A stretch of 63,412 nt of DNA, filler included, from Octopus bimaculoides (Eukaryota): NCBI RefSeq assembly GCF_001194135.2. It is 7 parts of 6 records of this genome, joined end to end, with 100 filler letters (N's around TTAATTAATTAA, not from the genome) between each part and the next. Parts side by side here need not be neighbours in the genome. Positions count along the whole stretch, not along the records: positions 1 to 31,528 come from NC_069004.1; positions 31,629 to 41,061 come from NC_069008.1; positions 41,162 to 49,985 come from NC_068991.1; positions 50,086 to 58,379 come from NC_069008.1; 3 more parts are not named here. The stretch is one strand, 5' to 3'. Shown here piece after piece: positions 9,557-55,929 of the stretch (the first letter of the stretch is position 1; every line of letters starts with the position of its first letter). The position numbers and the translations under genes were made by a program. The notes under the pieces are model-generated. The model saw only the letters and a list, made by a program, of their open reading frames with translations. It searched no databases and was not told where the DNA came from.

Positions 9557-11437
9557 GATATCAACAATATTAACAACAACATTAACAAGTACAACAACAA
9601 TATTAACAACTGCAACGACGATGATGATGATAACAAAAACAACAACAACAACAACAGCAGGTAGTGTCTGAATTAATTCACAGCCGGGTGTCTGTAGAAG
9701 GCGGTGGGATATCGAATAATTAACAAGTGCTTCATCGGACGCTCAGTGCATCGAGGTTCAAATCTCACTTTGTCCACATACAAAACAAGTGATCCTAGGG
9801 AGGCAAAGTTCATCAGTCGATTGCAGCAAACAGGTAAATGTTGACACCTGAAGAGTATTTGCACATTGAAAAGACTTGGAATTTTACCCAAAAGGAAATC
9901 CTGTCAAAATTCCTTCAGATTGGCAAGTTCTTACCCTCGCAGACTCCAAATCCATTCGTCTCAGGTTTGCGCTGCAACAACAGTCAGAGCTGGAGGAGAA
10001 ACCAGTAAACAGGATTTGATAAACATTGAAGTCCTTGATAATGGTTGATCCATCGAGATGTAGATTGGTGTTGTTGTTGTTTGAAATGATTGGAGATGGA
10101 GGAGAGGAAGCGGAGAGAGAGAAAGAGAGAGAAGGGGAGGGAGAGAGGGGAGAGAGAGAGAGAGAGCGCAAGAAGAAATCTTTGTTAATGAGTGACACGT
10201 CTGACGAAATTAACTTAATGGCTCCGAATACTTGTTAAACTCTTATCCACTCCATTCATTCAGTGAGCCCCCNNNNNNNNNNNNNNNNNNNNNNNNNNNN
10301 NNNNNNNNNNNNNNNNNNNNNNNNNNNNNNNNNNNNNNNNNNNNNNNNNNNNNNNNNNNNNNNNNNNNNNNNNNNNNNNNNNNNNNNNNNNNNNNNNNNN
10401 NNNNNNNNNNNNNNNNNNNNNNNNNNNNNNNNNNNNNNNNNNNNNNNNNNNNNNNNNNNNNNNNNNNNNNNNNNNNNNNNNNNNNNNNNNNNNNNNNNNN
10501 NNNNNNNNNNNNNNNNNNNNNNNNNNNNNNNNNNNNNNNNNNNNNNNNNNNNNNNNNNNNNNNNNTATATATATATATATATATATATATATATATTATA
10601 TATTATATATAATATTTGTTATATATATATATATATATATATATATATATATGTATGAGTGTGTATGTGTGTGTATATGTATATGTTCCCCCCATTATCT
10701 CCTTATACTCTTCCTCGCACTATCACTCTCCCATTTTTCCTCTCCCCATCTCTCTCCATTCACACACACACACACACACACACACACACACACATACAAA
10801 TACATACACATACACGCACACGCATATATATATAAATACATACATATACACACCCACATATATGTAAGTATATATATATATATTTTATATATATATATAT
10901 ATATATATATATACATACATACATACATATATACAAGCACACACACATATATATAAATACATACATATACACACTCACATATATGTTAGTATATATATAT
11001 ATATATATACATACGTGCATACATATATACATACACACACACATATATCATTCACTGATAATGCTTATTTTGTCCTCTTCTCTCTCTATAATCTTCCTAC
11101 CTGTTTCTCTCTCCTCCCCCTCTTTCTCCGAGCTCCCTATTTCCTCCTACAGTTACCTTCTCCCCACCACCTCCACCTCAGGCAATCGATCGCCTCACCG
11201 CTATAAAATGGTAAACACCGATGCCAGAATTAGCAGAAACAGCTGACCTTCCTCGCCAATTTCTAATTTCTATTGATTTCCTACTTAGGCTCAAGGCCAA
11301 AACTTTTTAAACTGTTGTTGATGTTTTTTGTCGCTTAAAACGCTGAGAAGAGAGAATGGTCGATCATATATGATCATGTATGTATGTATGTATGTACGTA
11401 TACACATTTACATTCATATATATATATATATATATAG

Positions 11438-11682
11438 TTCAAAAACACAATAACAAAAAAACAAAAAAACAACAAGGTGAGGACGTGATATGGATAGTAT
11501 TATTGGACGCTCAGGAAAGGAAAGAGAGAGTGTATGACGTTTCGGGCGTAGCCCTTCGTCGGAAAGATGGAAAGTTCGGAGAATGGAAGAACGGAGAAAG
11601 AGGAAAATGGTACCGATGCCCACGAGGTTACATGATGAAAAGACCGGAAGAGGAGGTGGTGGGGGAAAAGTTCTTTCTAAGA
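11438..11682 (-). mobile_element. 3' end of a putative Penelope-like element ending in (TA)n
   Basis: Carries a minimal hammerhead-like motif, then a pyrimidine-rich tail ending at (TA)n 11417-11437. Runs into a gap at the other end. No RT ORF is visible. Confidence 0.55.
11532..11566 (-). ncRNA. minimal hammerhead-like motif (Penelope dimer type), degenerate
   Basis: Minus strand CCGACGA-A-GGGC-TAC-GCCC-GAA-ACGT-C: core with U4C, 4-bp stem II, palindromic ACGT stem III. Stem I pairs poorly (CTTT vs ATAC). Confidence 0.55.
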
Positions 11683-12777
11683 NNNNNNNNNNNNNNNNNN
11701 NNNNNNNNNNNNNNNNNNNNNNNNNNNNNNNNNNNNNNNNNNNNNNNNNNNNNNNNNNNNNNNNNNNNNNNNNNNNNNNNNNNNNNNNNNNNNNNNNNNN
11801 NNNNNNNNNNNNNNNNNNNNNNNNNNNNNNNNNNNNNNNNNNNNNNNNNNNNNNNNNNNNNNNNNNNNNNNNNNNNNNNNNNNNNNNNNNNNNNNNNNNN
11901 NNNNNNNNNNNNNNNNNNNNNNNNNNNNNNNNNNNNNNNNNNNNNNNNNNNNNNNNNNNNNNNNNNNNNNNNNNNNNNNNNNNNNNNNNNNNNNNNNNNN
12001 NNNNNNNNNNNNNNNNNNNNNNNNNNNNNNNNNNNNNNNNNNNNNNNNNNNNNNNNNNNNNNNNNNNNNNNNNNNNNNNNNNTATATATATATATATAAG
12101 GACTTTATATGTATGTATGTGCATGTGTGTGTATACACACACATACACACACACACATACACACACACACACACACACACATATATAATCATCTAATCGA
12201 TGATGCGATGATGATATATATGAAATGGTCCATAACTGGGAGGAGAAATTGTAATAAAGCATCAACGATGGTAATAATAATAATAATAATAATAATAATA
12301 ATAATAATAATAATAATCATAATCATAATGATAATAATGATGATAATAATAATGAAATACAAGCACTGCCATCATGACCATCACCATTTTTGCTCTGTTA
12401 ATTTATATATAATACATTTCTTTCTTTCTCATCCCCGTAAACAATGGTTGACATTTCCAGAAATACAATGGTGCACTAAATAAATGTATGTTGTTGTTGT
12501 GAGATGACGACGGCTACGGTGCTGGAGGTTGTGGTGGTGGTGCTGGTGGTGCTGGTGGTGGTTGTGGTTGTAGTGGGGATCATAGGGGTAGGAATGTGAG
12601 TGGGGATGGGGTGTTGGGGATTTTTTTTTGGGGGGGGGAGATAAAAGAAATTGCAGTTTAGGTTTGATTGATAGTAGTTGTTATAGTTGTTTGCGGTGGT
12701 GACTGTGGTGATGATGATGATGATGACGTGCTGGTATTATTATTATTATTATTATTAGTAGTAGTAGTAATCGTTGT

Positions 12778-13620
12778 TGTTTAGCCCCAGGTCAACTGTA
12801 ACCATTCCGAACACACTTCCCCAAGTATTTTTCAAAGATTATAGACCAGATATTCTAAGGCTTCTCCTTGTAGCGTACCCACTCCATCATGTCGGCAGTA
12901 TTGGGGGTACCCTGTGAAAAGAATCTAATGTAAAATGACCGGATGCCTTCGAACAGACAACAGACATGCAATTTTTGCTATAAATTTAATTTAGTCTAAT
13001 GAATTCTAATCAGGCCATTGTCAAATTTGCCTCTTATGCCTCCAAGGTCAGTAAAGATAGAATACCAGTCATATACTTGGGTGGAATATCCGAATGTTCC
13101 CTTTTTCATACGTGATGTGGTCGCATCAAGAAACTGTTGGGATGAGTCTAAGGCAACGCCTATAGAATGAAAGATATCTGTAGTCCTGTAGATTCTGCAA
13201 GTCTTTTACCCGGGTCAGTCATAAATGGCGATCGGCATCAAAATGGATCTACACAGGAATAACTTGGTGCTTTGGTTGAAGACAGAGTTAGACCATACAG
13301 CTTCAGACGCTGGAAGATGGCAACAAGTCTCTTCTCGACATCACTTTTGGAATTTCCATCTTTACCGACGTGTTCGCAGCAAGAAGTTCTTAGGCTGATT
13401 CTGAGGCAAAGTTTGTAGAACGGAACTTATCTGCAGTTCTATAAATTTTACTAATCTTTTCTCACGTCTCAAAGACAAGTTGCCATCGATAATACAGTGG
13501 GTCTATACAGAAGAATTTTGGTGCTTTGGTTGAAGAAGTTGGATCATTCAGGTTTGGCTTCAGTTTTTGTCTTTTCTTTGAATCACTTTTTGCGCTTCCA
13601 TTGTTACCGACAAAATGGTG
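12778..13620 (-). mobile_element. decayed RTE-clade LINE 3' end with an internal diverged ~255-bp duplication
   Basis: Minus-strand peptides HVGKDGNSKSDVEKRL..IFQRL and FYRRCLRLIPTVS*CDHIT match recalled RTE ORF C-terminal motifs. Tail CCTGGGGCTAAACAA at 12778-12795. TTGGTGCTTTGGTTGAAGA occurs at about 13264 and 13518. Confidence 0.7.
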
Positions 13621-13734
13621 TTTTGTAAGGAATACACTAAATATAAAGAAACGAAAACCACTTAGTATTCTTTAAACCCAAACCCTAAACTTCTCCCATA
13701 CATTCATCATCTCGTCGACGCTGACTTTATGTTT

Positions 13735-13945
13735 GGGAGGCGTTGTAGAATCTACAGAACTATAGATGTCTTCCATTCTACAGATGCTGCCTTAGAATAA
13801 GTCTAAGAACCTTTTGATGGGACAACATCATGAACGAAATCATGGAAATGCTGCAAACTGGGTAAGATATGGGATACAATGAATGTGAGGCAGCGGAATA
13901 TATTTGACGATGTGGTACGTCATTGGACATTCTAAGACAAGAGTA
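13735..13945 (+). mobile_element. decayed RTE-clade LINE fragment, inverted relative to 12778-13620
   Basis: DVFH..CCLRI..WDNIMNEIM motif. 13745-13800 aligns with the reverse complement of about 13145-13200. Confidence 0.65.
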
Positions 13946-54842: not shown

Positions 54843-54851
54843 AGGGGGTGG

Positions 54852-55023
54852 GGATCTTTTTTAAAACGGGACAACAACTTTAACATGGAATAACTTGCGA
54901 TGTACTTTTTTTGTTAAGAAGACTAAGAGAAAAAGATGTTTTATATGACACATTCTACCAGTGTTCCAAGTTTCAAAGTGTTTCGTTAAGAAAATACTGG
55001 CGCCCCCGTTTTGAACTAGATCC
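54852..55023. mobile_element. GGATC-ended MITE, 172-bp derivative
   Basis: Ends GGATCTTTTTTAAAACGGG and CCCGTTTTGAACTAGATCC. The right half is the reverse complement of 56438-56535. No TSD. Confidence 0.8.
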
Positions 55024-55094
55024 CTGTCACCTCAACGGCTTATACACATACGCACTCACATACTATAACAGATCTATCTACCTCTCTCTCTCTC

Positions 55095-55866
55095 TGTCGG
55101 TATGCACATACTTGTACGTATATATGCATATACTCATTTACTATTTGTTTTTACATGATTGAACGCAGCGCCTTCCAACTGTAAGTAGTTTTCGTAAACT
55201 CATATCCTCCGACGCTACTCTATCTCTTTCTCTTTCTTTTTTCCCCCTCTCGTTCTTCCTCTTTACTACTACGTATCTCGCTTTACCCCTCTCGTTCTTC
55301 CTCTGTTACTACTACGTATCTCTTTTTCCCCCCTCGTATTTCCTCTCTTTCTCTTTTCCCCTGTTGCTCACCTATTCTTCTACTTCCTCCCTTTGTTTCT
55401 CCCTCTACCACTCTCTCTATAATCCTCTCAATAATCCTTTCCTTCCTTGGCTTTCGCCAAGCAACGCACGCACCACTTTGTCCCTCTCAAGTTCGTGCCT
55501 CATCGCGTTCATACACACATAATTTTTCTCGTCTGGCCGAAAAGCCTTTTCTGTTTGTTTTCCTGTCTTGTTTTTTGTCCGCCACTACATTCCTCCATGG
55601 CTAGATTTAATTTGCGTATACAAATTTAATCTGCGATCCATGGGACGAGCCGTTTTAACGATGCGTCCTGCCCAAGCTCGTCGAAACGCCGGTGTTAAAA
55701 CGTGGGTAGCTGATGAAGTAGAATGTTCTCTATGTGGCTCGTGTGTTCTCGTCTACGTTTGTTTGCAATGTCCTGTACCCAGATATGCACCTATACATAC
55801 AGGTGGATGTCGGTATGCACATACCTGTACGTATATATGCATATACTCATTTACTATTTGTTTTTA
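55095..55866 (+). mobile_element. hammerhead-motif element family G, copy 2, bracketed by a 59-bp direct repeat of its tail
   Basis: 55095-55153 is nearly identical to 55808-55866. Ends at (TA)n. Confidence 0.7.
55663..55722 (+). ncRNA. hammerhead-like motif with non-canonical strand order
   Basis: GCGT-C-CTGCCCA ... GAA-ACGC ... TGGGTAG-CTGATGA, with spacing identical to the 50863 copy. Confidence 0.5.
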
Positions 55867-55929
55867 TATATATATATATCTTTCTATCTATCTATCTTTC
55901 TATTTATTATGTAATAATTCACTTTTTAC

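Follow-up and report, generated by a model that had tools for sequence, protein, structure and literature searches.

We analyzed a 63,412-nucleotide stretch of DNA from Octopus bimaculoides (RefSeq assembly GCF_001194135.2; hereafter the window, along which positions are counted), whose 2.34-Gb genome is rich in gaps and microsatellites. A reading of the sequence alone had picked out six hammerhead ribozyme core motifs, at positions 11532, 18589, 47840, 48684, 50863 and 55663; all six are present, and 100–240 nt away each has a 3′ end that passes into (TA)n, much as that reading had proposed. Because the window is a pack of seven joined stretches, with the loci spread over three contigs (C24, C11 and C28), their closeness is biologically meaningless. 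We consider it probable that the six loci are the 3′ ends of Penelope-like elements (PLEs) inserted in (TA)n, and that the families of 18589, 48684, 50863 and 55663 carry a predicted, likely self-cleaving hammerhead of type SGC whose stem II takes its 5′ strand from upstream of the cleavage site, a fold that likely came from the Naiad elements.

All six loci belong to dispersed families, named here A1 (55663), A2 (50863), B (11532), C (47840), D (48684) and E (18589). Copies are 98–100% identical in A1 and in B (best 40 of 2162 and best 40 of 2220 candidates, respectively), 88–92% in E, 83–94% in A2, 78–85% in D and 77–90% in C, and a 32-nt word of the A1 tail has 1538 exact copies. The sequence-only reading had described a guild of non-coding elements in at least four unrelated contexts. 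They do form four groups, but three of the loci (18589, 50863 and 55663) are one superfamily, A1, A2 and E sharing a common tail; homology of D to A or E was not detected. Non-coding tandem units are present in A (~713 nt), D (734–745 nt) and C (~466 nt), whereas 11532 belongs to a family that reaches a GIY-YIG/reverse transcriptase (RT) open reading frame (ORF). The guild is therefore real in part, mostly known in kind, and has one coding member. The tail duplications that had been proposed, two inverted and one direct, are there (Table 1), and no RT was found in the window, where PLE peptides from the same genome give 0 matches. Three hammerhead architectures are likewise supported; the unusual point appears to be the third, a predicted non-circularly permuted hammerhead with an opened core. 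Complete ribozymes are found in three of the six window copies (47840, 50863 and 55663). A strict descriptor of the split form finds only 50863 and 55663; the 48684 copy is decayed in helix b and in stems I and III.

In the families of 18589, 48684, 50863 and 55663, the strands follow the order of type SGC (cleavage site, GAAA, CUGANGA), and the 5′ strand of stem II is upstream of the cleavage site, detached from CUGANGA. Subfamily comparison gave the helix order IIa, b, IIIb-NUH-Ia, IIb-GAAA-IIIa, b′, Ib-CUGANGA, in which three of the four helices cross. The motif with GAAA before CUGAUGA has 8417 matches in the genome, versus 28 for a reversed-pattern control. A set of 70 loci, drawn from the first 72 motif places listed, was used for the stem counts and for the (TA)n counts below. 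Stems I and III are kept at an NUH site in 41 of the 70; among these, the upstream strand brings stem II to 5 bp in 34/41 and the downstream strand does so in 11/41, in a test not selected on stem II but in which the upstream search had more registers to choose from. The strict descriptor found 92 matches in the fetched loci and 0 in the same loci reversed. Family D follows this layout too, its sequence differing in each helix; its pattern gave 53 matches versus 0 in the control, and the strict fold is present in 7 of 30 family D loci found by similarity.

Modal strands of seven subfamilies pair almost completely with their own partners (stem II, 5.0/5; stem III, 4.6/5; stem I, 5.9/6; helix b, 5.3/6) and far less with those of other subfamilies (3.1, 2.5, 2.8 and 2.1, respectively), while a downstream stem II shows no gap between the two (1.86 versus 1.88). 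In an alignment of 25 sequences, both sides change in 13 of the 16 pairs, and none of 500 shuffles attains their covariation score; a downstream stem II is 69.6% paired, and 25 of the 500 shuffles attain its score. As the rows were picked as intact, which inflates the percentage paired, the evidence is the covariation across subfamilies and not that percentage. The invariant columns are the hammerhead core (G10.1, U16.1, GAAA and CUGA-GA), and N7 and H17 vary, as in active hammerheads. A conserved fold, which we call split-SGC, is strongly supported by these sequence comparisons.

The covariation also bears on a rival arrangement, an ordinary type-SGC ribozyme whose stem II would be built from the bases after CUGANGA, the upstream strand being a decoy that pairs with IIb and b′ and keeps the ribozyme off until needed. 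We find this quite unlikely. Of the 25 rows, 19 allow a G10.1-C11.1 pair with a downstream G and 23 allow a second pair, helix b is stronger upstream in only 31 of the 41 loci, and published SGC ribozymes also carry one extra base after CUGANGA (PMC10085705 supplement, in the portion available). However, the downstream pairing is short, G-U rich and without covariation, and in family D and in Naiad copies it amounts to 1–3 pairs, mostly 2, against 4–5 and 5–6 upstream, respectively.

Other assignments were dropped: 50863, 55663 and 18589 as type II hammerheads, since with the strands in that order neither stem I nor stem II forms; 48684 as a minimal type I hammerhead in decay, an assignment that its family overturned; and hepatitis delta virus-like (HDV-like), twister or pistol layouts for the 55663 fold, because the hammerhead core is invariant. 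Nested minimum free energy (MFE) folding, a method that cannot represent a pseudoknot, gave z = −0.98 and −3.08 for two regions. An Rfam scan of the window returned no hammerhead among the 150 of 285 matches listed, nearly all of them microsatellite noise, and a metagenome scan returned 26 motif matches, 0 with stems I and III.

Table 1 Ribozyme-bearing elements and associated features in the window.
Feature	Position	Strand	Details
Family B 3′ end, 5′-truncated or gap-bounded	11436–11682	−	Homology to coding copies; flanked by (TA)n 11416–11435, gap 11683–12082 and (TA)n 12083–12098
Decayed minimal type I hammerhead (B)	11536–11562	−	CCGACGA core, stem II of 4 bp, stem III palindromic, stem I absent
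Family E copy cut just 5′ of GAAA	18469–18628	−	3′ half of predicted split-SGC hammerhead (CUGAUGA 18589–18595) and shared tail; (TA)n 18455–18468
Part of family C tail, copied in inverted orientation (5′ inversion)	47530–47579	−	92% over 51 nt
Family C, ~1.2 units of ~466-nt non-coding tandem repeat	47577–48146	+	47577–47687 recurs at 48043–48148; (TA)n 48147–48162
Canonical type I hammerhead, long stem II (C)	47844–47911	+	Predicted cut after C47908; weak Rfam HH9 match, E value 3.1
Inverted copy of family D tail	48435–48510	−	
Family D, 3′ part of 734–745-nt non-coding tandem unit	48525–48844	+	(TA)n 48845–48872
Decayed split-SGC hammerhead (D)	48666–48740	+	Window copy fails descriptor; hammerhead intact elsewhere in family D
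Family A2, truncated non-coding element	50525–51076	+	67% identical to 55663 element; (TA)n 51084–51095
Predicted split-SGC hammerhead (A2)	50844–50916	+	IIa 50844, predicted cut after C50867, GAAA 50883, CUGAUGA 50910–50916
Upstream direct copy of A1 tail (pseudo-LTR)	55095–55153	+	Joined to head, no (TA)n between
Family A1, one whole ~713-nt non-coding unit, young	55154–55866	+	(TA)n 55865–55878
Hairpin directly 5′ of stem IIa (A1)	55595–55643	+	Covaries in A/E superfamily
Predicted split-SGC hammerhead (A1)	55644–55716	+	IIa 55644, helix b, predicted cut after C55667, GAAA 55683, CUGAUGA 55710–55716

Known type-SGC hammerheads (HRIMA-1 and variants) cleave in vitro and, in the part of Eckert et al. 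2023 available (PMC10085705), come from metatranscriptomes, with none in the genomes of known organisms. The octopus form resembles those described there in the order of its S, G and C blocks with all core nucleotides, in the short linker between stems I and II, and in a fourth helix joining the far ends of these two stems; all three stems (I, II and III) covary, as does the linking helix. It departs from them in the place of the 5′ strand of stem II, which does not directly follow CUGANGA, since the upstream strand covaries and the downstream one does not. With both IIa and the strand of the fourth helix placed 5′ of the cleavage block, the split form would be a circular permutation of SGC with the chain opened between A9 and G10.1. 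The setting differs as well, the known form coming from metatranscriptomes and this one from an animal genome with thousands of loci. The literature searched, most subscription journals lying outside its coverage, yielded no report of an SGC hammerhead from animal genomes or from Naiads. De la Pena and Flores, in 2001, reportedly saw one extra base tolerated at the A9/G10.1 position.

As read from their sequences, RT-coding Naiad elements have the same predicted fold at their 3′ end. The published ends of Naiad_Obim and Naiad_Ovul show this layout when read by eye, and the octopus Naiad consensus ends, in the material available from Craig et al. 2021 (PMC8557442), share with family A2 the same stem I hexamers as well as the fold. 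A Naiad-type pattern gave 246 matches in the genome versus 0 in the control. Of 30 in-genome copies, 18 keep stems I and III, with a stem II mostly of 5–6 bp upstream and 2 bp downstream, and one locus (L458) joins an RT fragment (RVT_1, E value 2e-5) to the split-SGC motif. Naiads are marked by a GIY-YIG domain N-terminal to the RT; the four in-genome Naiad copies that were fetched, assigned by eye match to Naiad_Obim, are truncated within or after the RT. According to the sections of PMC8557442 available, Naiads prefer (TA)n and are without canonical hammerheads, some being listed with half cores, among them Naiad_Ovul, marked only 'HHR_half_core'. Families A, E and D are like Naiad in (TA)n preference, pseudo-long terminal repeats (pseudo-LTRs) and tandem and inverted insertions, but have no ORF and no homology to it outside the ribozyme. 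Their split-SGC fold was likely inherited from Naiad elements.

A trace of cleavage was looked for in the ends of the copies. Among all 100 motif loci listed, 27 homologies start, at their 5′ end, at −1 to +12 from the predicted cut and only 3 at −27 to −2 (binomial 6e-10). In 50 A1 copies chosen by their tail, 29 break 3′ of the predicted cut (23 of them not at a gap) and 3 at −5 to −10, with no non-gap break from −11 to −99 and 15 further up. This truncation step fits a template pool whose 5′ end would lie at the predicted cut. Three unstranded RNA-seq runs from a single study (raw reads, same species) contain transcripts of the family, and the tail-to-head joints seen in these reads are explained by genomic tandems equally well as by circular RNA. 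A further-reaching reading, to which we give somewhat better than even chances, is that animal genomes hold a seventh hammerhead wiring, a three-knot pseudoknot with its core opened at A9/G10.1, which would be the missing Naiad ribozyme, would have passed to several non-coding families with more than 8,000 copies, and would cut in vivo, marking the truncations.

Several observations weigh against a Naiad-derived hammerhead that cuts. One is a rival rod obtained by nested folding, in which stem I survives but the upstream a/b strand is paired with the sequence that follows CUGAUGA. In the part of PMC10085705 available, IIa and the fourth-helix strand follow CUGANGA and block C is assumed to be uninterruptible, and no hammerhead opened at A9/G10.1 was found in the literature searched. 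Families A, E and D have only the ribozyme in common with Naiad (core and stem I by nhmmer, against a Naiad set chosen with that motif), no RT match stands beside any of 300 loci, and the Naiad copies found are old (median pairwise identity 74.5%) while A1 is young; family B is young like A1 but shares no tail. As for cleavage, breakpoints do not pile up at the predicted cut in the tail-chosen A1 copies (1/50 at +1), the Naiad set has no truncation step (3 versus 2 of 60 loci), and structure-dependent stalling could give a similar truncation profile. Nor do RNA-read ends pile up at any place in the three unstranded runs; RNA depth dips at the predicted cut, but a common insertion of one base, 6 nt away, confounds this.

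The lack of a pile-up of read ends would suit a fold kept for recognition by the RT or the endonuclease, which has either lost cleavage or retains it in dimers or tandem copies alone. Cleavage is not needed by every PLE, since family B spreads at 98–100% identity with a broken hammerhead; moreover, in PMC6155905 (the part available) the hammerheads of PLEs are called minimal motifs, and newt and viroid motifs are said to be cleaved as dimers. We nevertheless regard this alternative as unlikely, given that every catalytic position stays unchanged between subfamilies whose helices all differ, N7 and H17 being left free as in active hammerheads, and that truncations thin out at the predicted cut.

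The (TA)n adjacency proposed from the window is far above chance. At the 70 loci, chosen by motif and position only, (TA)5 or longer occurs 40–240 nt 3′ of the core in 43, and 11 more reach a gap; the background is 294 of 3465 overlapping windows (8.5%) in 20 arbitrary 10-kb stretches, and 12.7% in the window itself. By family, (TA)n adjoins 20/30 anchored copies of A1, 15/24 of A2, 20/22 of E, 28/28 of B, 17/29 of D and 16/22 of C. At A1 tail-head joints, the head directly follows the tail in 29/30 cases, with (TA)4 between them in 0/30, and truncated 5′ ends abut (TA)n in 11/29 (versus 4.7%), so the (TA)n is derived from the target. Pseudo-LTRs, 5′ truncation, 5′ inversion and a microsatellite target, which together are the insertion signature of PLEs, are all seen in the group of A, E, D and C, supporting the Penelope-type ends and microsatellite targeting of the sequence-only reading. 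Elements are also nested in each other's (TA)n ends, as with an A1 piece on an E tail (L236) and an A-type end beside a B copy (L343).

All 30 A1 head loci run into a gap, which supports the earlier suggestion that such elements lie inside (TA)n-flanked gaps. It would also be expected if all six loci were truncated ends of coding PLEs, with ORFs hidden in gaps and no non-coding guild, an account that is true for family B. For the six together it is very unlikely, as gap-free units running tail-head-body-ribozyme-tail without an ORF exist in A1 (window), D (L346 and L347) and C (L037). An autonomous partner of A, C or D was sought by shared tail in 30 + 20 partly overlapping GIY-YIG loci of 2390 candidates, and none was found; one same-strand upstream match (L256) was discarded as low-complexity.

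By established PLE biology, a GIY-YIG endonuclease would nick (TA)n and a PLE RT would copy the RNA from its tail in a target-primed reaction, with truncation and inversion as consequences. The ribozyme may cut tandem or read-through transcripts and so set the 5′ end of part of the templates, and the non-coding units may borrow the enzyme in trans, either from Naiad or from the equally young Neptune-type family B.

Family B is a different case. Its locus, 11532, is, by sequence, the truncated 3′ end of a young Neptune-type element with RT and GIY-YIG, as RT, linker and GIY-YIG follow in this order upstream and 10 of 30 loci are joined to the 11532 end; the clade was assigned from domain order and linker, not from an RT tree. 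In one long copy, L341, a GIY-YIG end is followed downstream by a CA-rich 3′ untranslated region (UTR). Its GIY-YIG piece, used as a query, gave 40 matches, and in the 10 of 30 loci the 11532 end lies within ~1.5 kb on the same strand. Pieces of RT, CX2-5CxxC linker and GIY-YIG occur in L355, L356, L357, L373 and L374, with no single intact ORF seen. The hammerhead is a relic: CCGACGA stands in place of CUGANGA in 29 of 30 copies (1 not parsed), an older copy (L379) retains CTGACGA, and in nested folding the region forms a non-ribozyme hairpin. The family shares with Neptune-clade PLEs (PMC8557442, as far as available) the RT, the CX2-5CxxC linker, the C-terminal GIY-YIG, a minimal hammerhead near the 3′ end and a microsatellite target, and differs in that its hammerhead is decayed (C for U4, no stem I) despite the youth of the family. 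The 98–100% identical copies (L061–L090) are spreading with this broken hammerhead, and the core change permits the stable alternative hairpin. At L301–L320, many decayed RT and GIY-YIG elements of several types end in (TA)n, and some of them retain a type I hammerhead in degenerate form.

Family C is a repeat of the known non-LTR retrozyme kind with an ordinary, complete type I hammerhead, its 3′ ends falling at several positions of the unit and 5′ inversions being frequent. Retrozymes of this kind were reportedly described in animals by Cervera and de la Pena in 2020. They are non-coding tandem units with one hammerhead each, proposed to come from PLE ends (bioRxiv 10.64898/2026.07.22.740005, in the part available), and family C fits them directly. 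Those retrozymes carry type I hammerheads, which of A, E, D and C only C does; A, E and D, with units of ~710–745 nt, have the split-SGC form. A further family with a complete canonical type I hammerhead was seen at L133 (1184–1216) and L215; in L133 a same-strand GIY-YIG match follows ~300 nt downstream of the motif.

Some features surround the elements. A pair of ~100-nt inverted repeats (98%) brackets A1 at 54924–55023 and 56438–56538, and the arm also flanks two other loci (L008 and L029); the pair looks like a small DNA transposon that A1 entered. A GTAAGT lies ~30–40 nt into the unit in A1 (55154–55195) and in one of two D heads (L347, not L346), resembling the 5′ intron donor described for some PLEs; no splicing at it was found among the RNA-read joints listed. 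Copies of an abundant repeat resembling a short interspersed nuclear element (SINE) stand beside the elements at 47340–47480, 48950–49200 and 55915–56070. Elsewhere in the window are GC-rich tandem arrays of 55–56-nt units (2.2 and 6.1 copies, 92–94% matches) in AT-rich surroundings at 41825–42279, and repeats of a 162-nt unit (2.6 copies) and a 31-nt unit (6.4 copies) at 39346–39757 and 31629–31831, respectively.

Hammerheads in PLEs, their non-autonomous derivatives and the (TA)n preference of octopus Naiad and Hydra elements are already in print (PMC8557442 and bioRxiv 10.64898/2026.07.22.740005, in the parts available). Since Penelope ends, hammerheads and (TA)n targeting are known, the new part would be the predicted split-SGC hammerhead. 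If it is true, the stated exception that Naiads lack hammerheads falls, non-circularly permuted ribozymes move from environmental RNA without an assigned source to the genomes of animals, and the CUGANGA block no longer obeys the rule of being uninterruptible; with that block interrupted, present hammerhead descriptors and Rfam would therefore miss a whole class. The role of hammerheads in Penelope elements is given as an open question in the part of PMC8557442 available. A young family would make it testable, having more than 1,500 tails that are nearly identical, a predicted place of cutting and truncations whose profile can be measured.

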